NCBI GenBank assembly: GCA_963756925.1
Contig: CAVWPL010000006.1
Location: forward strand, 38,020-102,019
Reading direction: 5' to 3'
Source: an uncultured Actinomycetes bacterium
GTDB lineage: Bacteria; Actinomycetota; Thermoleophilia; Gaiellales; Gaiellaceae
Length of the DNA stretch: 64,000 nucleotides
Part shown: piece by piece, positions 5,113 through 37,855 of the stretch
Layout: every line of letters begins with the position of its first letter
Position numbering within the stretch: position 1 is the stretch's first letter
The notes under the pieces: model-generated
Told to the model about the DNA's origin: nothing
Database searches by the model: none
Seen by the model: only the letters and a program-made list of their open reading frames with translations
Made by a program: the position numbers and the translations under genes

Positions 5113-7042
5113 GTGACGACGGCGGACGTCAAGATGCCCGTGACGGCGGACCGGATCGAGTCGCTGCTCTCTGCGCGCCTTTTCGTCGAGCCGCAGCTCG
5201 CCGGCGGCCGGCTGACCTTCCTCTCGAACCTGTCCGGGCAGCTGAGCCTCTACTCCATGGACAGCCGCGGAGGCGTTCCCGACCCATTGCTCCCGGGGCG
5301 CATCGCGCTGCAGAACCCGGAGCTCATCGGCGGGTACTCGTTCCACGTCGTGCCGGAGCTCGATCGCATCGTCCTGATGATCGACAGCGACGGGGACGAG
5401 AACTACGAGCCCTACCTGATCCCGCTCGAGGGAGGCTTCCCGGAGCCGCTGGCGCCGGAGTCGTTCGTCGGCCACCGCTCGCACCTCGTCGACTTCGATC
5501 CGAAGACGAATACGGCGTACTTCGGTGCCGAGTCGCGGCAGGAGTCGCTCATCACGGCGTTCCGCGTGCAGCTCGCAACCGGCGAAGTCGAGGCGATCTG
5601 GCAGAGCCAGTACGGTGCGATGCCGGCCGCCTGGAGCCCCGACCATTCACGCGCATTCCTCGCCGACTTCTACACGGCCGGCGACAGCGTCATCTACGAG
5701 CCGGATGGCGACAGCCGTCGAATTCTCTACGGCACGCCGATCGAAGAGCGCCGAGAAGGCGTCGAGTACCCGCCCTCGGGCCTCCATTCGGCGCACTGCA
5801 CGGCGAGCGCGAAGGGGCTCCTCCTCGCATCGAGCCTCTTCGAGGACACCGGTACACCCGGCTACCTCGATCTCGCGCAGCCGGGAGAGATCGAGCCGGT
5901 GGCGATCGACGGGCTGCGCCACGATGGCGCGGGTGAGCTCTCGGGGATCGCGCACGTCGAGGACGACCGCTACGTCGTCCAGTACAACGTCGACGGCTGC
6001 TCCTGGGCGTACGAGACACGTCTCGACGAGGCGGGAAGACGGCTCACGGTCGAGCGCGTGCTCGTCGGTGAGGGCGAGCTCGCAGGCGGCGTTCTCCACG
6101 GCCTCCACTACGACGAGGGAAGCGGCGGGTTCGCGCTCTCCTTCTGCACAGCCACGCTGCCGACCCAGCTGTACGTCATCGACGCCGAGACTGCGGCTCC
6201 TGCGCGCAAGACGCGCGAGCGCCCGCTCGGCATCTCGCCTGAGCTCTTGTCCGCGGGTGAGGACGCGTCGTTCGAGTCGCACGACGGCCTCCGCGTCTCG
6301 GCGCGGCTCTACCTGCCTTCGGAGGAGCTCGGATACGTCGGCGAGCGGCCGCTCGTCTACTACGTGCATGGAGGGCCGCAGAGCCAGGAGCGTCCGAACT
6401 TCGCCTGGTTCTCGATGCCGCTGATCCAGATCCTGACGCTCGAGGGATTTGCCGTCTTCGTCCCGAATGCGCGTGGCTCGACGGGGTACGGCCTCGAGCT
6501 ACACCAAGCGAGTGGATCGCGACTGGGGTGGCCAGGATCGGCTCGACCACGTTCATGCGATGACCGAGGTGTTGCCGGGCCACGAGCGCGTGGACGTCGG
6601 CCGCGCCGGCGTCGTCGGGCGCTCGTACGGCGGGTACATGACCCTCATGCTCGCGAGCCGGCATCCGGAGCTCTGGCGGGCGGCCGTCGACATGTTCGGT
6701 CCGTACGACCTGTACACGTTCTCCCAGCGGATCCCCGAGACGTGGAAGCCGTACTTCGCCCTTGCCCTCGGAGATCCGGAGCGCGACCGCGACTTCCTCG
6801 ACGAGCGGTCGCCGAAGACGACGATCGCGGAGATCGCCGCGCCGCTGCTCGTCATCCAGGGTCAGAACGACCCGCGTGTGGTAGAGCGCGAGTCGCACGA
6901 CCTCGTCGAGAGTCTGCGCGCGCTGGGCAAGGATGTCGACTACCTCGTCTTCGAGGACGAGGGCCACGATGTCCTGAAGCTCGGCAACCGGGTGCGCTGC
7001 TACGACAAGATCGTCGGCTTCTTCTCCGAGCACCTCGCCTGA
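5113..7042 (+). CDS. S9 family serine peptidase (prolyl oligopeptidase / dipeptidyl aminopeptidase-like), frame broken near 6497
   Basis: The long N-terminal region looks like a propeller domain and is followed by [10 protein letters not shown]...NARGSTGYG. The frame switches into ORF 6449..7042, which carries GRSYGGYM (GxSxGG nucleophile), QGQNDPRV and EDEGHD. Confidence 0.8.
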
Positions 7043-7050
7043 GGGCCTGT

Positions 7051-7056
7051 TAGGGT
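7051..7056 (+). promoter_or_regulatory. putative -10 hexamer TAGGGT, 7 nt upstream of the GTG start at 7064
   Basis: TAGGGT at 7051-7056, spacer cgcaccc, GTG at 7064. No Shine-Dalgarno sequence. Confidence 0.35.
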
Positions 7057-7063
7057 CGCACCC

Positions 7064-7583
7064 GTGCGTTGGCTCGCGATCCTCTTCGCCCTACTCGCGC
7101 TCGTCGCGGTCGGTGCCGGCTGCGGTGGCGGCGACGACGAGGCGAGTGACGATCCCGAGACCACGGTGACCGACACGGACACCGACGAGACGACGACCGA
7201 CGATACGACGACGGATGACGACGACCGAGACGAGACGGACACCGATAACTCGGGCGACCTTTCCGGCGAGTGTCTCGAGGCCGTGCAGGCGTACTCTGCG
7301 GCGCTCGCGGCGGCCGGCGCCGGCGGCGACACAGAAGATTCGCTCGACGTCTTCCAGGAGTTCGCGGACCAGGCTCCAGAGGAGATCCGGGACGACTTTC
7401 AGGTGCTCGCTCAAGCGTACGCCGAGTACGTCAAGGTCGTGGGTGAGCTCGATCTGCAGCCTGGAGTGGTCCCGAGCGCCGACGAGCTCGCAGGAGCTTA
7501 CGGCGGCGTCGGCGGCATTCAACGACCCGGAGGTCGCTGCGGCGAACGAACGAGTGACCGTCTGGGCCGACGAGAACTGCTAG
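7064..7583 (+). CDS. acidic Thr/Asp-rich lipoprotein, hypothetical (frame broken near 7490)
   Basis: Signal peptide with lipobox: MRWLAILFALLALVAVGAGC. A TD-rich low-complexity linker follows. The C-terminus continues in ORF 7215..7583 as ...ELTAASAAFNDPEVAAANERVTVWADENC. Confidence 0.55.
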
Positions 7584-7641
7584 CCGCTCCTTTCTACGAA
7601 TTCGACTGAGCGGCTCGCGGAGGGACGTCCGGGGCGCACAC

Positions 7642-7647
7642 TACCTT
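7642..7647 (+). promoter_or_regulatory. putative -10 hexamer TACCTT, 6 nt upstream of the ruvC GTG (leaderless-type)
   Basis: TACCTT at 7642-7647, spacer ctgtac, GTG at 7654. Confidence 0.4.
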
Positions 7648-7653
7648 CTGTAC

Positions 7654-8157
7654 GTGAAAGTCCTCGGCATCGACCCAGGGACAGCTGCGTGCGGGTACGG
7701 GATCGTCCACGAAAGCGACGGCCGCCTCCGGGCGGTGCTCCACGGGGAGTGGCGGACGTCCGCGCGAGCGCGTCTGGAGGACCGCCTGCTGACGATCTTC
7801 GCGGGGGTGCAGGAGCTCGTTGCGGAGCATGCGCCCGACGCCGTCGCAATCGAGGAGTCCTTCGTGGGTGCAGACGCCCGCATCGCGCTCTCCGTCGGGC
7901 AGGCGCGCGGCGCCGTGCTCGTCGCCGCAGCGTCCGCCGGCATTGACTGCGCCGAGTACGCCCCTGCCCGCGTGAAGCAGACCGTGTGCGGCTACGGCCG
8001 GGCGGAGAAGGGGCAGATGCAGCGCATGGTGCGCTTGATCCTCTCGCTGGACGCCGAGCCGAAGTCCACGCACGCGGCCGACGCGCTCGCTGTCGCCATC
8101 TGCCACGCACTCGCGCCTCCGCTGCTCGACATTGCCGGACTCGAGGCGGCTGGATGA
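7654..8157 (+). CDS. ruvC: crossover junction endodeoxyribonuclease RuvC
   Basis: MKVLGIDPGTAACGYGIV..., AIEESFVG, QARGAVLVAAA, YGRAEKGQMQRMV, THAADALAVAICH. The stop overlaps the ruvA start (ATGA at 8154-8157). Confidence 0.93.
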   Translation: MKVLGIDPGTAACGYGIVHESDGRLRAVLHGEWRTSARARLEDRLLTIFAGVQELVAEHAPDAVAIEESFVGADARIALSVGQARGAVLVAAASAGIDCAEYAPARVKQTVCGYGRAEKGQMQRMVRLILSLDAEPKSTHAADALAVAICHALAPPLLDIAGLEAAG

Positions 8158-27653: not shown

Positions 27654-27676
27654 CGGGTTCCGACTGACGGACCTCC

Positions 27677-29672
27677 ATGGCTGAGCTCGGTCGTGCCGCG
27701 CTCCTCATCACACTCGGTCTCGTCACGTACGCGCTCGTGGCGGGTGCGGCTGCTGCGTATCTCGGTCGCCGGCGACTCGCTGCCTCCGCACAGAACGCGC
27801 TCGTTGCCGCGTTCTTCTCGACGCTGGTCGCCTCCGGCGTGCTCCTGGCAGCGCTCCTGCGACATGACTTCTCGTTCACCTACGTCGCGCGGACGACGAG
27901 CGAAGCCCTTCCGACCGGATACACGATCTCCGCATTCTGGGGAGGACAGGAAGGATCGCTTCTTCTGTGGCTGCTCGTGCTCACCGGCTTTGGCTCGGCG
28001 GCCGTGCGGTTCAACCGACGCTGGGCGCGCGATCTCATCGTCTGGGTCGTGCCCGTGTTCGCTGCGGTTGCGGTGTTCTTCGCATTCCTCGTCGTCGCCG
28101 TGGCGAGCCCGTTTGCGACCCAGCTAGCACCTGCGGACGGCGCGGGCATGACGCCGAGCCTCCAGAACCCGTACATGCTTGCCCACCCACCGCTCCTGTA
28201 CCTCGGCTACGTGGGCCTGACCGTGCCGTTCGCGTTCTGTCTCGGGGCGCTCCTTGCCGGTCGGCCAGACGAGCGCTGGCTCGTTGCGACCCGTCGCTGG
28301 ACACTCTTTGCGTGGTCGGCGCTCGGAATCGGGCAGCTGCTCGGCGCTCACTGGGCGTACGTCGAGGTCGGTTGGGGCGGCTACTACGCGTGGGATCCGG
28401 TCGAGAACGCCGCGCTCATGCCGTGGCTCGCGGCAACGGCTTTCCTGCACTCGGTCATGATCCAGGAGAAGCGCGGAATGCTTCGGGTCTGGAACGTGTT
28501 GCTCGTCATCCTCGCGTTCTCGCTGGCTCTCTTCGGCACGTTCTTGACCCGGTCCGGTGTCGTGAACTCGATCCATTCGTTCACTCAGAGCTCGATCGGC
28601 GCGTGGTTCCTGGGATTCATCGCGCTCGTGATCACCGTTTCCCTCGCGATCGTGTTCATTCGGTTGCCGCTCCTCCGCTCGCCCACGCGGCTCGAGTCAC
28701 CGCATCTCGCGCGAGGCAGCTTTCCTCTACAACAACCTGCTTCTGCTCGCGCTGTGCCTCGCCATCTTCTGGGGGGTCGTGTACCCACTCGTCTCCGAGG
28801 CCGTTCGTGGCGAAGCGGTCGTTCTCGGGCGGTCCTACTACGACTTCTTCCTGAGAATCTTCGGGCTTCCGCTCCTCTTGCTGATGGGGATCGGCCCGCT
28901 GGTCGCCTGGAGGCGAGCGTCGCTCGCGAGCCTCGCGACCACGTTTCGCTGGCCGACCCTCGTCGCGCTCGCGACCGGGGCTGTGCTCGTCGTGCTCGGT
29001 GCCGGGAGCTCGCCTCCCGGGCTCATCGCGTACACGTTCTCGGCCTTCGTGGCGACGACGATATTCATGGAGTTCGCACGCGGTACGCGTGCCAGGAAGG
29101 CTCTAGGAGCCGCTACCTGGCCTCGAGCGTTCTCCGCCCTCTTGGGACGAAACAGGCGACGGTACGGGGGATACGTCGTGCATGCGTCGATCGTGCTGCT
29201 TGCGATCGGGATCGCCGGCTCGAGCGCCTTCGACGAGGTCGCCGAAGCAAGACTCGTACGAGGAGAGTCGATGACCGTCGGCGACTACACGCTGCGGTAT
29301 CGGTCGCTCGACGAGCAGCTTGCGGCGAACGCCACCAAGATTCGTGCGACGCTGGCCGTTACACGCGGCGGTAACGATCTCGGCACGCTCGAGGCGGGAA
29401 AGAACGCGTACACCGTCGAGCAACAGGTCTCCAACGAGGTCGGGATCCGCAGCGACAAGCTGACGGGCGAGGATCTCTTCGTGATCACCGAGCAGATCGA
29501 CCCCGACGGCACTGTCTACTTCCGCGTCTTCGTGAAGCCACTCGTCAATCTCATCTGGCTCGCGGGCGTCGTATTCGTCCTCGGATCCTTGATCGCGCTT
29601 TGGCCGGATGCGCGTGAGCAGCGGCGACTCGTCGAGCGCACGCGCGAGATCGGTCTCCCGGCAACCCGTTGA
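27677..29672 (+). CDS. ccmF: cytochrome c-type biogenesis heme lyase CcmF (frame broken near 28705)
   Basis: Polytopic membrane protein with the WWD motif WGGYYAWDPVENAALMPW. The sequence RLESP... then shifts to SREAAFLYNNLLLLALCLAIFWGVVYPLVSEA (own translation) and continues in ORF 28779..29672. Confidence 0.9.
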
Positions 29673-31208: not shown

Positions 31209-31808
31209 CTAGGCGGCGTCGGTTGCGGCTGCCGGGAGCTCTGTCGCGGCGACGAGGTGGAGATCGGGGAGCGCACGCCAGCGCTCGTCGAGGCCGAGTC
31301 CGTAGCCGGCGAAGAGCTCGTCGGGGACCGTGAACCCCACGTAGCGAAGCGGGAGCTTTTCGACCAGGCGACGATACGGTCGGTCGAGAAGCGTCACAGC
31401 TGCCAAGCTCGCAGGGTCACGAAGCGAGAGGGTCTTGCAGAGGAAGTGGAGAGTGAGCCCCGTGTCGACGACATCCTCGACGAGCAGCACGTGCCGGTCG
31501 CGGAGCGGCACGTCGACATCCTTGAGCAAGCGCACGCCTCCGCTTGCCGAACCCCCGACGGCGCCGGTGTACGGAGCAAGCTCGATGACATCGAGCGTGT
31601 GCGGGACCGGGAGCGCCCGAGTGAGGTCGGCGAGGAAGACGACGCTCGACTTCAACGGGGCGACGAGCAGCGGATCGAGGCCGTCGTAGTCCGCCGCGAT
31701 CTCGGCGCCGAGCTCGACCACGCGCGAGGCAATCTCCTGGCGCGCCAGGTAGATGTCGCCGACGTCCCCGTGCTCGGAGGGCATGACATGAGGTGGTCTC
31801 GTGTGCAT
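31209..31808 (-). CDS. hpt: hypoxanthine phosphoribosyltransferase
   Basis: PRPP-binding loop: HVLLVEDVVDTGLTL. Also KSSVVFLADL and YVGFTVPDELFAGYGLGLDERWR. The start may be the internal ATG at 31784. Confidence 0.85.
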   Translation of the reverse strand: MHTRPPHVMPSEHGDVGDIYLARQEIASRVVELGAEIAADYDGLDPLLVAPLKSSVVFLADLTRALPVPHTLDVIELAPYTGAVGGSASGGVRLLKDVDVPLRDRHVLLVEDVVDTGLTLHFLCKTLSLRDPASLAAVTLLDRPYRRLVEKLPLRYVGFTVPDELFAGYGLGLDERWRALPDLHLVAATELPAAATDAA

Positions 31809-31839
31809 GGACTAGACGGTCCAGCTCACGAGATCCGAC

Positions 31840-32208
31840 CTACGACGCCCAGCGCAGGTGATACCGCTGCGCGAGGCGCTCGATGTCGCGCCTGTAGAAG
31901 AGCTTGACCCGGATGTCGGGATAGAGCCGGCGAATCTCGCGGAGCTTGCGGTTCTTGCGCGTTACGAGTGACTGCTTCATCACCGTGACTTCGATGAAGA
32001 GCTCCTGGTCGGGGAGGTAGAAGTCCGGCGTGAACGCGCTGACGATGCGACCTTCGGCGTCTCTCTCGAGAACGAACGTATGCGGCTCGTAGTCCCAGCG
32101 CACACCGTAGTAGTCGAGGATCTTCGCGCACTCGAGCTCGGTGCGATTTGCAAACCGAGGTGGCTCCGGGCCGCAATATGCCTGGAAACCGGTGCTTTCT
32201 ACTTGCAC
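31840..32208 (-). CDS. small PD-(D/E)xK-like (TnsA/restriction-endonuclease-fold) protein, hypothetical
   Basis: 122-aa ORF. The helix-E / PD / E-x-K-like arrangement is ELECAKILDYYGVRWDYEP...FTPDFYLPDQELFIEVTVMK. Assignment is by motif pattern only. Confidence 0.4.
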   Translation of the reverse strand: MQVESTGFQAYCGPEPPRFANRTELECAKILDYYGVRWDYEPHTFVLERDAEGRIVSAFTPDFYLPDQELFIEVTVMKQSLVTRKNRKLREIRRLYPDIRVKLFYRRDIERLAQRYHLRWAS

Positions 32209-32274
32209 CTACGCCAGGGTACCAACCGCCTCGGATGGTACGAGAACGACGCACGAAGCCCCGCTGCGACCTCG

Positions 32275-32280
32275 TAGACT
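32275..32280 (+). promoter_or_regulatory. putative -10 hexamer TAGACT, 6 nt upstream of the first gene of the cDPG-like operon (leaderless-type)
   Basis: TAGACT at 32275-32280, spacer ctgacc, ATG at 32287. Confidence 0.4.
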
Positions 32281-32286
32281 CTGACC

Positions 32287-33093
32287 ATGTCGTCTCGCGC
32301 GGGGGTCTTCAGGATCGCCCAGATCTCGGATCTGCACTGCGGCGGGCCGTATTTCGAAGGGAGCCTGCTCGAGCGAGCGATCGGCGAGATCAACGAGCTC
32401 GAGCCCGACATCGTGGTCTGCAGCGGGGATTTGACGACATTCGGCTTCCGGCACGAGTACCTGACGGCCCGGGAATACCTCGATCGGATCGACTGCGACT
32501 CGCTGGTCGTCGTCCCCGGGAACCACGACTCGCGGAACGTCGGCTACGTTCACTTCGAGGAGATGTTCGGGGAGCGCAACTCGGTGCTGGCGAAGGGTGT
32601 CGTCGCGATCGTCGCCGTCGACTCGAGCGAACCGGACCTCGATCATGGTCAAATCGGGCGCGGCCGGTACCGCTGGATCGAGGAGCAGTTCGCGCGCGAG
32701 CCGGCCGACCTCAGAATCTTCATGCTTCATCACCATCTGCTCCCCGTTCCCGGCACCGGGCGCGAGCGCAACGTCGTCTACGACGCCGGGGACGCCATCG
32801 AGTGCCTCCAGCGCGCAGGTGTCCGCCTGGTGCTGTCCGGCCATAAGCATGTGCCGTACGTCTGGCGGCTCGAGGATCTGTTCGTCGTGAACGCCGGGAC
32901 GGTTTCGTCGCTCCGCCTACGCGGGAAGACAAGGCCTTGTTACAACGTGATCGAGATCGCCGATAGGCAGGTCGATATCTGGCGGCGGCATCCGTTCCAC
33001 GGCCAGGTGAAGCTCGTTCAGTTCTCGCTCGATACGCTCGAGTACGCGAAGTTCACGGGCGCCATCGAGGACGAGGTCACGACCCGCACTTGA
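32287..33093 (+). CDS. calcineurin-like metallophosphoesterase
   Basis: Motifs in order: ISDLH (DxH), SGDLT (GD), PGNHD (GNHD), MLHHH, SGHKH (GH). The stop overlaps the TTG start of the next gene (cTTGAgg at 33090-33093). Confidence 0.8.
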   Translation: MSSRAGVFRIAQISDLHCGGPYFEGSLLERAIGEINELEPDIVVCSGDLTTFGFRHEYLTAREYLDRIDCDSLVVVPGNHDSRNVGYVHFEEMFGERNSVLAKGVVAIVAVDSSEPDLDHGQIGRGRYRWIEEQFAREPADLRIFMLHHHLLPVPGTGRERNVVYDAGDAIECLQRAGVRLVLSGHKHVPYVWRLEDLFVVNAGTVSSLRLRGKTRPCYNVIEIADRQVDIWRRHPFHGQVKLVQFSLDTLEYAKFTGAIEDEVTTRT

Positions 33094-34346
33094 GGGCGCT
33101 CGCAGTCGTCGACGGCGAGCATTACGCATCCGTCGTCCGCGATGCGCTTGCCGGCTTGCCGTACGAGGTGGTCGGTGCCGTCCTCGTCGGTGGTACCGAG
33201 AAGCTCCGAGGCGGTGAGGACTACGGCGTTCCGCTCGCTGACGGGATGGCGGAGGCCATCGAACGCTTTCGGCCCGAGCTCGTCGTCGATCTCTCCGACG
33301 AGCCAGTGCTCGGACCGGTCGAGCGGTTCAGGCTCGCGAGCAGGGTGCTGGCGTCCGGGCTGCCGTACGTCGGCGCAGACTTCCGGTTCGATCCTCCTGT
33401 GCTCGAGGCGTTCGCCTCGCCGTCGATTGCGGTCATCGGAACGGGAAAGCGTGTGGGCAAGACCGCGGTCACCGCACATCTAGCGAGACTGCTGTCGACG
33501 CGGCTCGACGTTGTGGTCGTCGCCATGGGCCGGGGGGGACCGGCACACCCGGAGAGGATCACGGTTCAGCCGACGGTCGACGCGCTCGTCGAGTTGTCGC
33601 GGAGCGGCCGTCATGCTGCGTCCGACCATCTCGAGACCGCAGCACTGGTCGGCGTGGAGACGATCGGGTGCCGCCGGTGCGGTGGCGGACTCGCAGGGGG
33701 AGTCGTAGCGTCGAACGTCGCTGAGGGCGCACGGATGGCCGCTGGGCTCGAGCGCGATCTCGTGATCTTCGATGGAAGCGGAGCAGCGCTTCCCCCGATC
33801 GAGACGGATCGAAGGATCGTGGTCGTCGGCGGCCATCAGAACCCCTCGGTCGCGACGGGTTATCTGAACGAGTACCGGCTTCTCCTCGCCGACCTCGTGA
33901 TCGTGACGATGGCTGAGTCCGACTCGGGTTGGGAGAAGGTGCGAGACGCGGTTCGGTGCGTGGCGCGTGACGGGACCGAGGTCGTCGCTTCCGTGCTTCG
34001 TCCACGTCCGGCGGTCGACGTCAGCGGACGCACCGTGGCCTACTTCGCGACCGCGCCGCCTGCCGCGCACGACGTGCTCCGCGCCCACATCGTGCGTCGC
34101 TTCGGAGCCGACGTCGTGCATGTCTCCGGCAATCTGGGCGATCGAGCGGCGTTGCGTGACGAACTCGACAGCGTCGAGGCCGACGTGTTCGTCGTCGAGC
34201 TGAAAGCGGCCGCGATCGATGTCGTTGCCGAGCATGCGCGGGCTCGGGGGATCGAAGTCGTCCTCGCCGCAAATGACGTGATCCCTCTTCCGGGCGAAGG
34301 TGCACTTGACGAGATGCTGCTGGAAATGGCAGGAATTACGGTATGA
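33090..34346 (+). CDS. cpgS: cyclic 2,3-diphosphoglycerate synthetase-like protein
   Basis: 418-aa ORF. The N-terminus MRALAVVDGEHYASVVRDAL...VGGTEKL and Walker A IGTGKRVGKT match my recollection of the archaeal CpgS family (Methanothermus/Methanopyrus). It is translationally coupled on both sides. Assigned from memory; no search was run. Confidence 0.7.
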   Translation: MRALAVVDGEHYASVVRDALAGLPYEVVGAVLVGGTEKLRGGEDYGVPLADGMAEAIERFRPELVVDLSDEPVLGPVERFRLASRVLASGLPYVGADFRFDPPVLEAFASPSIAVIGTGKRVGKTAVTAHLARLLSTRLDVVVVAMGRGGPAHPERITVQPTVDALVELSRSGRHAASDHLETAALVGVETIGCRRCGGGLAGGVVASNVAEGARMAAGLERDLVIFDGSGAALPPIETDRRIVVVGGHQNPSVATGYLNEYRLLLADLVIVTMAESDSGWEKVRDAVRCVARDGTEVVASVLRPRPAVDVSGRTVAYFATAPPAAHDVLRAHIVRRFGADVVHVSGNLGDRAALRDELDSVEADVFVVELKAAAIDVVAEHARARGIEVVLAANDVIPLPGEGALDEMLLEMAGITV

Positions 34347-35260
34347 GCGAGCGCAGGCACGTCATTCCGCTGCCGTTGGGCGACGAGATTCCGTTCTCGA
34401 AGGGGCTCATGGCGCGAGCGCTCATCGTGACCGGCCTCGATCCGGAGCGTTCGCATCTGATCGCCCGACGCGTGGACAAGGACTTGAGCGAGCGCAATGT
34501 CGCGTCACTCGATCTCGACCGACTCAGTGAGCTCGCAGCCGATGTCATCGGCGTCGACGAAGCCGCGAGAACGGTTCGTCGGCTTAGGAGACTGGACGCG
34601 CTCCAAAGACTCGACGAGCCGCTCCTGCTGCTCGTTGGAGGCGCGACAGGCACCGGCAAGTCGTCCATCGCCACCGAGGCTGCGCATCGGCTCGGCATCA
34701 CTCGCGTTACTTCGACGGACTTCATCCGGCAGACGATGCGCGCGTTCTTCGCTGAGGAGTTCATGCCGTCCGTGCACTACTCGAGCTTCGAGGCGCGCCT
34801 CGCTCTGACGAGAGCCGAGGAAGAAGAGTCGGGCGACGCAGCGATTCTCGGTTTCCTCGACCAGACCCGCAACGTGCTCGTCGGTGTGCAAGCCGCGCTC
34901 GAGCGGGCGGCGACCGAGCGGTGGTCGATGGTGCTCGAAGGCGTTCACCTCGTTCCGGGCATGGTCGCTGCGGAAGTGCCCGAAGCGTTCGTGGTGCAAT
35001 GCGTGGTGGCGATCGAGGACGAGAACCTCCACCGAAGTCACTTCTGGGTTCGCGACTACGCGACCGACGGGCTACGACCGCTCGAGAAGTACCTCGATGC
35101 GCTCCCCCAGATCCGAGAGATTCAGGACTATCTCGTCGAGCGGGCACGCCGACACGACATTCCGGTCATCGTCAACGACTCGTTCGATCATGCTCTCGCG
35201 GAGGTTATGGACCTCGTGCTGCGTCGCGCCGACCAGCTTGTCGGCGCTCCAACAAGCTGA
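34343..35260 (+). CDS. 2-phosphoglycerate kinase-like protein
   Basis: 305-aa ORF. N-terminal domain IPFSKGLMARALIVTGL. P-loop LLLVGGATGTGKSSIA followed by ITRVTSTDFIRQTMR, the pattern I associate with COG2074 2-phosphoglycerate kinase. ATGA overlap with the upstream gene at 34343-34346. Confidence 0.7.
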   Translation: MSERRHVIPLPLGDEIPFSKGLMARALIVTGLDPERSHLIARRVDKDLSERNVASLDLDRLSELAADVIGVDEAARTVRRLRRLDALQRLDEPLLLLVGGATGTGKSSIATEAAHRLGITRVTSTDFIRQTMRAFFAEEFMPSVHYSSFEARLALTRAEEEESGDAAILGFLDQTRNVLVGVQAALERAATERWSMVLEGVHLVPGMVAAEVPEAFVVQCVVAIEDENLHRSHFWVRDYATDGLRPLEKYLDALPQIREIQDYLVERARRHDIPVIVNDSFDHALAEVMDLVLRRADQLVGAPTS

Positions 35261-35288
35261 GCTGCGCGGTCAAGCCACACTCCGTGTC

Positions 35289-35294
35289 TAGACT
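35289..35294 (+). promoter_or_regulatory. putative -10 hexamer TAGACT, 6 nt upstream of the GTG start at 35301
   Basis: TAGACT at 35289-35294, spacer ggttgc, GTG at 35301. Confidence 0.4.
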
Positions 35295-35300
35295 GGTTGC

Positions 35301-35600
35301 GTGGTCACTCGCGAGGACGTCGTCGAAGCCCTGCACGGGGTGGAGGATCCGGAGCTCGGCATGGACATCGTCGAGCTCGGGCTCATGTATGACGTCGAGG
35401 TCGACGGGCCGAGCGTGAAGATCGTCTACAGCCTCACGTCGATGGGCTGTCCGGCGGGAGCGATGATCGCCGACGGAATCGTCGAGGCGGCGCGGGGGGT
35501 CCCCGGCGTCGCCGAGGTCGAGGCGGAGCTCACGTTCGATCCGCCGTGGACACCGGATCGCATGTCGGACGACGCGAAGTTCATCCTCGGCTTCGGCTAG
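35301..35600 (+). CDS. DUF59/MIP18 family Fe-S assembly protein (SufT/PaaD-like)
   Basis: 99-aa ORF with VEDPELGMDIVELGLMYDV...SLTSMGCPAG...LTFDPPWTPDRMS. Confidence 0.8.
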   Translation: MVTREDVVEALHGVEDPELGMDIVELGLMYDVEVDGPSVKIVYSLTSMGCPAGAMIADGIVEAARGVPGVAEVEAELTFDPPWTPDRMSDDAKFILGFG

Positions 35601-35829
35601 CACCACAGGCTTGGGTGCGTTCGGCGATCCTGCCGGCGGGAGCGGGTGGGATATCGAGCGGATCCGTGACGAACCTCGCGGTGCGATCCTGCATGCTTCT
35701 GGATCGCGGTACGTCTTGCGCTCCCTACGCTCGAGCCCGCTGCGACCGCGCCTGATGGACATCCTCTCGCCACCCCATGCCGCCACATCGTCGAACCTGA
35801 GCGTCGTCGAAACCGCGCTGGTTCTGTAG

Positions 35830-36831
35830 CTACGGGCTCTGTTGCTCCGGGATTCCGAGGACGACCTTGCCGAACTGCGCGCCCGACTCGAGACGCTCAT
35901 GCGCCCGCGCCGCCTCTGCCAGTGGGAATACCTGGTCGACGTGGACTCGCGCCCGGCCGTCACGGATGAGCTCGTACGCACCCTCGAAGTCCGTCGCAGT
36001 ACCCATCGTCGACCCGTAGAGCACAAGCTGCTTCCACCACAGGCGGTACAGCCGGGCTGGCGGGCTGTGCCCACTCGTCGCGCCGCACACGACGACTCGG
36101 CCCTCGTACCCGGCAGCCGCAAGCGACCGCTCCCACGTCGCCTCGCCCACGGTCTCGACGACGATCTCGGCGCCGCGTCCGTCCGTTGCCTCTTTCACGG
36201 ACGCGACAACGTCGTCGGTGGCGTGATTCACGACGACGTCCGCACCAAGCTCGCGGGCACGCTCGAGCTTGTCGGGGTTGGACGACGTGACGACGGTGTG
36301 AGCGCCGAGCGCGCGACAGATCTCGAAGGCCGCGAGCGCAACACCGCCGCCGATTCCCCAGATGAGAACCCATTCACCCGCCTCGACGCGCGCCTTCGTG
36401 ACGAGCATTCGGTATGCGGTTTCGAAGACGAGCGGAAAGGCCGCTCCCTCCTCGAACGACAGCGAGTCAGCGAGCGGATAGAGCTGCGCGGTCGGGATGG
36501 CTTTCAGCTCGCAGTACGTCCCGTCGGTGTGCTCGCCGATCACCGTCACGCGACCGTCGTGGACGATCCCAGGATTCACCACGACCCGATCACCGAGCGA
36601 GAAGCCTTCGACGCCATCGCCGAGCGCGGCAACGATGCCGGAACCGTCTGCACCGAGGATCCGAGGCTTGGGAACGGACGGCAGGCCCTTCCTGATCCAG
36701 ATGTCCAGATGATTGAGGCCGGCAGCGCGCAGTTCGACGAGAACCTCGCCAGCTTCAGGAGTCGGGTCGGGTACGTCCTCGTACTGGAGAACCTCTGATC
36801 CTCCGTCGGCGTGGATGCGAACGGCCTTCAC
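35830..36831 (-). CDS. zinc-type alcohol dehydrogenase / quinone oxidoreductase family protein
   Basis: MDR family pattern: KAVRIHADGGSEVL, LNHLDIW, nucleotide-binding loop IWGIGGGVALAAFEI. Start set at the GTG encoding VKAVRIH. The ORF-track start is 36849. Confidence 0.85.
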   Translation of the reverse strand: MKAVRIHADGGSEVLQYEDVPDPTPEAGEVLVELRAAGLNHLDIWIRKGLPSVPKPRILGADGSGIVAALGDGVEGFSLGDRVVVNPGIVHDGRVTVIGEHTDGTYCELKAIPTAQLYPLADSLSFEEGAAFPLVFETAYRMLVTKARVEAGEWVLIWGIGGGVALAAFEICRALGAHTVVTSSNPDKLERARELGADVVVNHATDDVVASVKEATDGRGAEIVVETVGEATWERSLAAAGYEGRVVVCGATSGHSPPARLYRLWWKQLVLYGSTMGTATDFEGAYELIRDGRARVHVDQVFPLAEAARAHERLESGAQFGKVVLGIPEQQSP

Positions 36832-36847
36832 GAGGCAGAATCCTCGC

Positions 36848-37855
36848 ATGACTGCGGCCGAGCTGACGCGGCTTGCGACGGATCTCGGGCTCGAAGTGGT
36901 CGGAGCAGCAGCCGCGAGTCCCTACGAGGACACCGAGAGGCACATCGTGGAACGCCGCGAGAGAGGGCTCTTCGCAGACATGCGATTCACGATGGCCAGA
37001 CCGGAGGTGTCGTGTCACCCCGAGCGGTTGTTCGTTGGTGCGCGCACCGTCATCTCGGTCGCCCACTGCTACTACTCGCGGCGTCCAGCCCCGAAGGCGG
37101 ACGAAGGTTGTCTCCCTCGATACACATGGCGAGACGCGTATGAGGATCTGCGAACCCGCCTGGATGAGCTCGGACGACGCATCGGAGGGCGCTATCGAGT
37201 GCTCGTCGATGCAAACGACCACGTCGACCGCGAGGCCGCCGTGCGAGCGGGGGTTGGCTTCTACGGGAAGAACACGATGGTCATCACACCCTCGCACGGC
37301 TCCTGGGTCGTGCTCGGCTCGCTCGTCACGGAGATCGAGATCGAGGCGACGCCACCCCTCGAGCTCGACTGCGGTGCGTGTCGTCTCTGCGTCGATGCCT
37401 GTCCGACAGGTGCTCTCGACGAGCCCGGCGTGCTGGATTCGACACGCTGTTTGTCGTACTGGACGCAGGCGCCGCGAGCGATCCCCGAGGACTTTCGCTC
37501 CGAGCTCGGGGCAATGGTCTACGGATGCGACATCTGTCAGGACGTCTGCCCCTGGAATCACGGAGTTGAGCGACGTACGGCAGAGTCGGAGCTCGACGGG
37601 GGCGCGCAGCCGAGCGTCTCGCTCCGTGACTGGCTCGAGCAGGACGGAGTCGAGCTTGTGTCCGAGTTCGAGCGCCTATACGTGCCACGCAATGACCCAC
37701 GCTGGTTGCGGCGCAATGCCTTGATCGCAGCAGGAAACGTTGGCTCGAGTGCCCTGGCACCGCTCGTTGCCGCGTATGCCGACACCGACGACGATGTTCT
37801 CAGCGATGCCGCGGGCTGGGCGCTGGCACAGATCGCCGGGAGGTCGGAACCATGA
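36848..37855 (+). CDS. queG: epoxyqueuosine reductase QueG
   Basis: Internal ATG 36848 of ORF 36713..37855. Motifs: GLFADMRFTMARPE, GVGFYGKNTMVI, two 4Fe-4S motifs CGACRLCVDACP and CDICQDVCPWN, and a HEAT-like C-terminus. Confidence 0.88.
   Translation: MTAAELTRLATDLGLEVVGAAAASPYEDTERHIVERRERGLFADMRFTMARPEVSCHPERLFVGARTVISVAHCYYSRRPAPKADEGCLPRYTWRDAYEDLRTRLDELGRRIGGRYRVLVDANDHVDREAAVRAGVGFYGKNTMVITPSHGSWVVLGSLVTEIEIEATPPLELDCGACRLCVDACPTGALDEPGVLDSTRCLSYWTQAPRAIPEDFRSELGAMVYGCDICQDVCPWNHGVERRTAESELDGGAQPSVSLRDWLEQDGVELVSEFERLYVPRNDPRWLRRNALIAAGNVGSSALAPLVAAYADTDDDVLSDAAGWALAQIAGRSEP

Follow-up and report, generated by a model that had tools for sequence, protein, structure and literature searches.

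Cyclic 2,3-diphosphoglycerate (cDPG) has been described as confined to hyperthermophilic methanogens (PMC10690619). In the pathway known from Methanothermus fervidus, 2-phosphoglycerate (2-PG) is converted to 2,3-diphosphoglycerate (2,3-DPG) and then to cDPG by two enzymes acting in succession, 2-PG kinase (2PGK) and cDPG synthetase (CPGS, encoded by cpgS). A membrane-bound cDPG hydrolase activity, inhibited by K+ and by phosphate, has been recorded in Methanothermobacter thermautotrophicus, and the review that describes it (PMC1224877, citing van Alebeek 1994 and Sastry 1992) gives no gene. Here, a three-gene cassette of related content is analyzed in an uncultured bacterium of the Gaiellaceae (Actinomycetota), on a stretch of 64,000 nucleotides (contig CAVWPL010000006.1, positions 38,020 to 102,019; hereafter the window). 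Its genes, ORF1, ORF2 and ORF3, encode, in this order, a calcineurin-like metallophosphoesterase, a CPGS homologue and a 2PGK homologue (Table 1). The evidence as a whole leans modestly toward a bacterial module for cDPG synthesis with a linked hydrolase for the turnover of cDPG or 2,3-DPG. Both enzyme families of the M. fervidus pathway are present, and in ORF2 the fold (TM 0.85) and the ligands of substrate, Mg and phosphate are kept as well; what differs is the high-GC bacterial host, the overlapping operon and the third gene.

The product of the middle gene can be compared directly with a solved structure. Judged by sequence and fold, ORF2 is a genuine member of the cDPG-synthetase family, with a predicted cyclization activity. 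A phmmer search of the PDB aligned residues 3-414 of ORF2 to residues 6-448 of the M. fervidus chain (8oru/8ork) at E=5.1e-86, followed by 9sxb at E=3.3e-80. These sequence matches are to cDPG synthetases only, and the assignment to CpgS made by the sequence-only reading, an earlier annotation of this DNA from its letters, thus extends over the full length of the protein, with no better match to other P-loop families. Over 412 aligned columns, ORF2 has 42% identity with its M. fervidus counterpart, and it contains the Walker A motif of CPGS, GTGKRxGKT, in the form GTGKRVGKT that the same reading had picked out. The structure paper names twelve ligand residues of the M. fervidus synthetase (PMC10690619), eleven of which are identical in ORF2 (E45, K46, K145, R146, K149, T150, D208, E305, T353, E404 and K406); in ORF2 numbering, E37, K38, K120, R121, K124, T125, D179, E370 and K372 are the counterparts of E45, K46, K145, R146, K149, T150, D208, E404 and K406, respectively. 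The twelfth, P335, did not map onto a proline when the alignment numbering was used. Among these residues, K145 and R146 contact 2,3-DPG, E45 is supplied by the partner subunit, and T150 and D208 are Mg ligands. Ten of the eleven mapped residues (E45, K46, K145, R146, K149, T150, D208, T353, E404 and K406) are invariant in an alignment of 62 sequences that spans all sampled bacterial lineages and two archaea. The remaining one, E305, is an adenosine contact that is kept in ORF2 yet variable across the family.

Structure prediction gives the same picture. The AlphaFold (AF2) model of ORF2 (pLDDT 88.7), compared with the M. fervidus structure as had been proposed along with the sequence-only reading, aligns with 8ork/8oru in Foldseek at TM 0.84-0.85 (E=6e-41, 446 columns) and reproduces the two-domain fold, including an N-terminal domain without counterpart in other structures; the next fold, that of LpxK, reaches TM 0.44. 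ORF2 matched no model in the copies of Pfam and NCBIfam that were searched, and its database homologues carry PF27272 (CpgS_N). The entry 9sxb was considered as a possible bacterial CPGS and set aside as archaeal-like, as its identity is 62% with a representative that falls among the archaeal-like sequences of the tree and approximately 48-50% with sequences of Methanobacteriales.

ORF3 is, by sequence, a homologue of 2PGK and not a certified equivalog. Its best families by far in NCBIfam are NF008994 (E=1.6e-77) and NF003259 (E=6.2e-76), the latter covering residues 15-298 on profile positions 14-294 of 306, N-terminal domain included. The peptide motifs on which the sequence-only reading had based its placement in COG2074 (PFSKGLMARAL, GGATGTGKSS and TDFIRQTMR) are all present, and that placement stands at full length with E~1e-77, with the reservation that the scores lie under the equivalog cut-offs. 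Bacterial homologues of COG2074 in Thermus and Deinococcus were pointed out in 2005, and no solved structure was found for the 2PGK family.

ORF1, as far as its sequence indicates, is a soluble calcineurin-like metallophosphoesterase without a close characterized relative. It matches Pfam Metallophos (PF00149) at E=4.3e-20 (73.4 bits against a cut-off of 21.5), and the five calcineurin-like motifs that had been recognized in it by eye are all found and conserved (D15xH17, G47D48, G78N79H80D81, H148-150 and G185H186xH188), the metal-binding motifs at >80-96% in 29 family members. The highest Kyte-Doolittle mean over 19 residues is 1.18, with no transmembrane segment. The best PDB match of its AF2 model (pLDDT 79.6) is Rv0805, at TM 0.66 and 22% identity; GpdQ and purple acid phosphatases are further neighbors (TM 0.6-0.7, identity at most 22%), and more than 100 metallophosphoesterase structures match the model at E<=1e-3. 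With Rv0805, CpdA/Icc and GpdQ, its best sequence and structure matches, ORF1 thus shares the fold and the five metal-binding motifs, but identity is only 17-22%, TM 0.6-0.7, and the scores are far under the equivalog cut-offs: 42.8 bits versus 225 for the CpdA equivalog NF008359 (residues 36-188 only, E=4e-11) and 41.3 bits versus 400 for SpdA (E=1e-10). Features that set ORF1 apart from these enzymes are a PGTGRER loop, K187 inside the GHxH motif, R125, R212 and the fixed partnership with cpgS and 2pgk. The loop is invariant, as are the subfamily-specific basic residues R125, R159, R161, K187 and R212, and together they suggest a specific polyanionic ligand. The exact ORF1 sequence belongs to a cluster (90% identity, 891 members) whose JGI names are 3′,5′-cyclic-AMP phosphodiesterase, Icc or CpdA, and hundreds of ORF1 orthologues are called cyclic-AMP phosphodiesterases without equivalog-level support, a naming that by profile score is a systematic mis-annotation. 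A role in anti-phage defense was considered for ORF1 and rejected, as DS9_1 was matched partially at 74.3 bits against a cut-off of 420 and PADLOC returned only PDC-S10 at 31 bits.

Similar comparisons can be made at the level of gene order. One genome per GTDB species was scanned, of which at least 402 held a relative, and neighborhoods were taken from the best 80, all of them metagenome-assembled genomes (MAGs) labelled Gaiellaceae, Gaiellales, Thermoleophilia or Actinomycetota. Homologues of ORF2 make up at least 8000 clusters at 90% identity. JGI or NCBI already call many of these cDPG synthetase, and several originate in MAGs of Gaiellaceae or Actinobacteria. When 50%-identity representatives were searched exhaustively with ORF2, 267 clusters matched at E<=1e-30. 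The cDPG genes are therefore no rarity of one bacterium and have already been automatically annotated by the thousand. In the Gaiellales-like loci with enough flank, an ORF1 homologue lies directly 5′ of the CPGS gene in all 79 cases and an ORF3 homologue directly 3′ in all 78, within a common order of M23 peptidase, hpt, a 122-aa gene, the trio, a sufT-like gene, zinc dehydrogenase and queG. Because the whole neighborhood is syntenic, linkage of the trio among these genomes could reflect phylogenetic inertia alone. The trio is intact in the loci where insertions part it from its neighbors (L065, L071, L073 and L074). Recent horizontal transfer or contamination was rejected as an origin of the cassette, since its GC content (65.4%) matches that of the window (66.5%), its flanks are bacterial and its synteny holds in 80 MAGs. 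There are no paralogues of the three genes within the window. Two kinds of irregular locus were also met with: apparent phosphoesterase-CPGS-2PGK fusions among metagenome gene calls (P0410, P0414 and P0518), rejected as frameshifted chimeric calls and not natural fusions, and a contig, CAVQVJ010000002.1, on which the whole region occurs twice in inverted orientation with the same neighbors (L021 and L022), probably a fold-back assembly artefact instead of a real duplication.

More distant relatives were sampled by scanning metagenome contigs with nine divergent high-GC representatives, which yielded 80 loci with a CPGS 39-60% identical to ORF2. The succession of CPGS and 2PGK genes is universal in these loci wherever the downstream flank exists. 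An ORF1-type phosphoesterase lies directly 5′ of the CPGS gene in 32 of 62 assessable loci, absence being called where the upstream flank reached 900 nt or more, and 18 of the 80 loci were too short to tell. The co-conservation of the phosphoesterase with the other two genes, on which the sequence-only reading had made its proposal depend, is thus complete among close relatives and, at about one half, partial among the divergent loci. When CPGS is clustered at 55-60% identity, the 32 phosphoesterase-bearing loci fall into approximately 10-11 groups; the GC content of their contigs ranges from 42 to 74%, those of low GC being identified as bacterial by rho, prfA and sppA. The divergent cassette resides in a hom-thrC-thrB ... 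rho-prfA region, between thrB and rho, which differs from the Gaiellales context (hpt and a gene of unknown function on one side, the sufT-like gene on the other), so that the trio appears to move as a unit.

Relative to the genes of the window, those of the divergent loci are 53-64% identical for ORF1 (76% in L162), 42-51% for CPGS and 34-45% for 2PGK. ORF1 exceeds CPGS in conservation in 99.6% of 446 locus pairs (median 58% versus 47%) and is, by sequence identity, the most conserved member of the trio. Pairwise distances co-vary with those of CPGS for both ORF1 (Spearman 0.62) and 2PGK (0.65), values that are descriptive given the non-independence of the pairs, and the gaps between the ORF1-type and CPGS genes stay short, mostly -4 to +59 nt. 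In a neighbor-joining tree of CPGS with an archaeal root, a quick distance tree, the layout with the phosphoesterase occurs on all deep bacterial branches and the layout without it in at least three to four derived clades, which suggests an ancestral bacterial trio with subsequent, repeated loss or relocation of ORF1.

Other genes accompany the divergent cassette. In 15 of the 30 loci without a phosphoesterase, the gene directly 5′ of cpgS is ApgM-like (L129:6640-7824 and 17 further loci have such a gene); it scores 441 bits against a cut-off of 426 for the cofactor-independent phosphoglycerate mutase NF003242 and 429 against 446 for the proposed homoserine kinase TIGR02535. It never occurs alongside thrB and takes the thrB slot in the hom-thrC-thrB-rho cluster, and it is probably a ThrB substitute; a role as dedicated supplier of 2-PG was considered and is the less likely reading. 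Eight divergent loci have, 5′ of the cassette, a gene of approximately 735 aa with GDE_N_bis and an MGH1-like, mannosylglycerate-hydrolase-like glycosidase domain (L146:731-2923, L152:4686-6911, L114, L127, L140, L144, L153 and L156), which places another type of enzyme connected with glycerate-derived solutes beside the cDPG genes. A fructose-6-phosphate aldolase gene (fsa/talC) lies between 2pgk and rho in two lower-GC loci (L136:10264-10959 and L152:10340-11008).

The organization of the cassette in the window is summarized in Table 1. The three coupled reading frames are as the sequence-only reading had drawn them, and their overlaps are kept across related loci: that of ORF1 and ORF2 is -4 nt in 58 of 81 and -1 nt in 10 of 81, and that of ORF2 and ORF3 is -4 nt in 70 of 81. 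The leaderless-type -10 element noticed upstream of ORF1 is likewise present, and a TANNNT hexamer (TAGACT, TACACT or TATGCT) is found 6-8 nt 5′ of the ORF1 start in essentially all Gaiellales-like loci (approximately 80), where the intergenic DNA around it diverges and the hexamer itself is kept; it recurs in one more divergent clade. A scan of 31700-35700 with generic sigma-70 and terminator consensus sequences gave no match, so that it is the phylogenetic footprint by itself that argues for a promoter. Together, the kept 4-nt overlaps and the TANNNT hexamer support a leaderless, translationally coupled operon, and the trio is probably expressed from one leaderless mRNA. Scans for Rfam families and tRNA genes over the whole window returned nothing, and a membrane-spanning segment is missing from all three proteins.

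Table 1. Features of the phosphoesterase-CPGS-2PGK cassette and its upstream region, in coordinates of the window.
Feature	Position	Strand	Size or start	Description
ORF1	32287-33093	+	268 aa, ATG start	Calcineurin-like metallophosphoesterase, soluble; candidate cDPG or 2,3-DPG hydrolase
ORF2	33090-34346	+	418 aa, TTG start	Cyclic 2,3-diphosphoglycerate synthetase (CPGS) homologue
ORF3	34343-35260	+	305 aa	2-phosphoglycerate kinase (2PGK, COG2074) homologue, P-loop GGATGTGKSS
TTGA overlap	33090-33093	+	4 nt	ORF2 TTG start over ORF1 TGA stop
ATGA overlap	34343-34346	+	4 nt	ORF3 start over ORF2 stop
TAGACT, -10-like hexamer	32275-32280	+		6 nt 5′ of ORF1 ATG; leaderless-type
Divergent intergenic region	32209-32286	.	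78 bp	Holds the ORF1 -10, the -10 of the minus-strand gene and CTCGGAYG
TACCCT, leaderless-type -10 of minus-strand gene 31840-32208	32216-32221 (plus-strand coordinates)	-		7 nt before start
CTCGGAYG motif	32230-32237			Between two divergent leaderless-type promoters; conserved across Gaiellales-like loci

Most Gaiellales-like loci have the CTCGGAYG motif, and its spacing from the ORF1 -10 element varies. The gene on the other side of the intergenic region (31840-32208, minus strand) is divergent from ORF1 and syntenic in all Gaiellales-like loci; its 122-aa product is 59-92% conserved and matched no Pfam, NCBIfam or PADLOC family. Downstream of the cassette, a second TAGACT (35289-35294) lies 6 nt 5′ of the GTG of the sufT-like gene (DUF59, SUF-associated; 35301-35600, plus strand), and leaderless-type starts thus seem to be common in this genome.

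In archaea, the same enzymes are arranged differently. The closest relatives of the M. fervidus CPGS are from Methanobacteriales, including Methanobacterium and Methanobrevibacter, both mesophilic genera. Three archaeal settings were examined (Methanothermobacter, Methanobacterium ferruginis and a contig identical to M. fervidus). A RimB-like gene (PF05618) lies 3′ of cpgS in all of these archaeal loci (L081, L082 and L083, ~5550-8040; L084, 4554-6492), and a UPF0058 gene lies 5′ of it in those of Methanothermobacter and Methanobacterium. Neither a phosphoesterase nor 2PGK is encoded near cpgS in the three archaeal loci, which makes the operon a bacterial arrangement of archaeal-type enzymes. 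The sequence-only reading had spoken of an archaeal-type cDPG operon, a description that fits the enzymes but not the operon, as the three Methanobacteriales genomes are without it.

In the scheme proposed here, ORF3 would convert 2-PG and ATP to 2,3-DPG, and ORF2 would use a second ATP to close the intramolecular pyrophosphate ring, as the M. fervidus enzyme does, yielding cDPG, ADP and phosphate. This synthetic core is likely, given the homology of both enzymes, the conserved ligand residues and the obligate gene linkage. ORF1, as a binuclear metallophosphoesterase, would return cDPG to 2,3-DPG and/or dephosphorylate 2,3-DPG, and such turnover would let the cell set the size of the pool or mobilize carbon and phosphate. 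The hydrolase role is drawn from the linkage of the trio, the intact metal site, the invariant basic residues and two precedents. Metallophosphoesterases include hydrolases of pyrophosphate bonds (LpxH, ApaH), and in E. coli polyphosphate kinase and exopolyphosphatase are encoded in one operon, ppk-ppx, so that synthesis and hydrolysis of a phosphoanhydride compound are co-expressed; the protein families and the product are unrelated to those considered here, and the parallel is one of analogy only. The reaction proposed for ORF1 (cDPG to 2,3-DPG) is also that of the M. thermautotrophicus hydrolase, an activity which shows that cDPG pools are actively turned over (PMC1224877). Resting on gene linkage and enzyme chemistry, the hydrolase role is put forward tentatively, with a chance approaching but not exceeding even.

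Several observations weigh against a cDPG module with its own hydrolase. cDPG has been stated to be exclusive to hyperthermophilic archaeal methanogens (PMC10690619), and the literature searched holds no biochemical or metabolite data from any bacterium. The M. thermautotrophicus activity is membrane-bound, and ORF1 has no membrane segment, which weakens the claim that the two are the same enzyme and not the claim that they catalyze the same reaction. ORF1 is absent beside CPGS in 30 of the 62 assessable divergent loci, in at least three to four clades, and it can therefore not be obligatory for the pathway, as the three archaeal cpgS loci also indicate. It is rare for an accessory hydrolase to be conserved more strongly than every other gene in its operon, and the co-translation of a synthetase with a hydrolase may lead to a futile cycle if the latter is not regulated. 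On the side of synthesis, ORF3 scores 255.7 bits against an equivalog cut-off of 343 and 261.1 against 603, and its family also holds mevalonate-3-phosphate 5-kinase and plant LPA1, so that membership alone is no proof of substrate. The CPGS superfamily, too, has a distant branch with a different reaction, the arginine synthetase ArcE (PMC11032458).

Conceivably, then, bacterial ORF2 and ORF3 have diverged in substrate, as ArcE and LPA1 illustrate, and the module makes some other phosphorylated or cyclic-pyrophosphate compound. Neither superfamily is monofunctional, ORF3 falls under its equivalog thresholds, bacterial cDPG has never been reported in the literature searched, and the Gaiella occulta genome paper, which covers compatible-solute genes, does not mention cpgS and 2pgk. 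This is nevertheless quite improbable, because none of the residues with which the M. fervidus enzyme contacts 2,3-DPG, Mg or the phosphates of ATP varies in any bacterial lineage sampled, and the obligate pairing of the enzymes mirrors two consecutive steps of a known pathway. ArcE (TK2200 of Thermococcus kodakarensis), which is ATP/ADP-dependent and widespread in bacteria, is a distant homologue of CPGS; the similarity is low (PMC11032458), as against the 42% identity of ORF2, and ArcE goes with arcB/arcC instead of 2PGK, its authors using CPGS as an outgroup (PMC11032458). Identity, ligand conservation, fold and linkage to 2PGK all put ORF2 on the CPGS side, with ArcE set apart by its published description only. 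If cDPG is the product, ORF1 might still be something other than a catabolic hydrolase. It could be a pathway-linked repair or proofreading enzyme that clears a by-product which is toxic or wrongly phosphorylated, for example a pyrophospho-intermediate that has been released, or a structural or regulatory partner of the synthetase. Its rank as the most conserved gene of the trio and its coupling upstream of CPGS would be more natural for a stoichiometric partner than for a catabolic enzyme that the cell could do without, and the invariant R125, R159, R161, K187, R212 and PGTGRER loop would suit a specific polyanionic ligand. Set against this, the intact metal-binding motifs speak for catalysis, the pathway genes occur with no adjacent ORF1 in the archaea and in roughly one half of the divergent lineages, and neither a complex nor a repair function is known in the synthesis of cDPG; on this evidence a partner or repair enzyme is unlikely, if a serious alternative.

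A class III cyclic-nucleotide phosphodiesterase of the CpdA, Icc or Rv0805 type, unrelated to cDPG and merely an operon mate, is what the JGI names imply, and both the nearest solved structure (Rv0805) and the CpdA and SpdA E-values agree with the family. The low bit scores and the modest resemblance to Rv0805 described above count against that identity, as does the linkage of ORF1 to cpgS and 2pgk, which holds in approximately 11 lineages and in both genomic settings, the distances co-varying. Moreover, no ORF1-like copy was found away from cpgS in 160 loci or in the window, and it is correspondingly hard to credit that ORF1 serves cyclic-nucleotide signaling. A synthesis module with a linked hydrolase thus stays the favored account of the trio. 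Its most far-reaching form, in which the ORF1-type phosphoesterase is the cDPG-hydrolase gene, unassigned since the early 1990s, and cDPG is a regulated solute or store of mesophiles made and turned over by one ancestral operon, is doubtful on present evidence.

The literature searched contains no report of bacterial cDPG, of this operon or of a gene for cDPG hydrolase, and searches linking cDPG synthetase or diphosphoglycerate with Gaiella or Actinobacteria found nothing relevant. The corresponding statements of the sequence-only reading, that cDPG is undemonstrated in bacteria and its hydrolase gene unassigned, accordingly met with no contrary paper. What is new, given that the synthesis genes are already automatically annotated, is the operon, which is widespread, probably ancient and bacterial and has a very conserved phosphoesterase partner. 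Gaiellales and other Thermoleophilia are mesophilic bacteria of soil and water, which makes a thermoprotective role of the product doubtful; more plausibly it would serve as a protectant against osmotic stress or desiccation or as a store of phosphate and energy. If the module is active, cDPG biology would reach into mesophilic Bacteria, relatives being present in at least 402 genomes at species level and in 8000 or more protein clusters of public genomic and metagenomic data. The role of cDPG as a thermoprotectant would then need rethinking, and a function in protection against desiccation, osmotic or oxidative stress, or in storing phosphate and energy, would become more likely. Activity of the module could also matter for pools of organic phosphorus in soil. 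As cDPG is under development as an industrial extremolyte, the cassette would in that case offer mesophilic, high-GC enzyme variants for its production and a cloneable candidate for cDPG hydrolase. Were the most far-reaching form to be true, cDPG would be regulated in abundant mesophilic soil Actinomycetota (Gaiellales and at least 10 further lineages).

Two further observations concern genes elsewhere in the window. Upstream of the cassette, ccmF (27668-29663, plus strand) is split by a frameshift at ~28702/28704 that puts Cytochrom_C_asm and CcmF_C in different frames; the gene is intact as a 668-aa ORF in relatives (L001, L002 and L008), and the split is a sequencing error or a pseudogene. 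Downstream, the zinc-dehydrogenase gene (35830-36849, minus strand) and the queG-like gene (36713-37855, plus strand) are divergent and overlap by approximately 137 nt as called. If queG instead starts at an internal ATG near 36848, the two start codons stand back to back with zero intergenic space.

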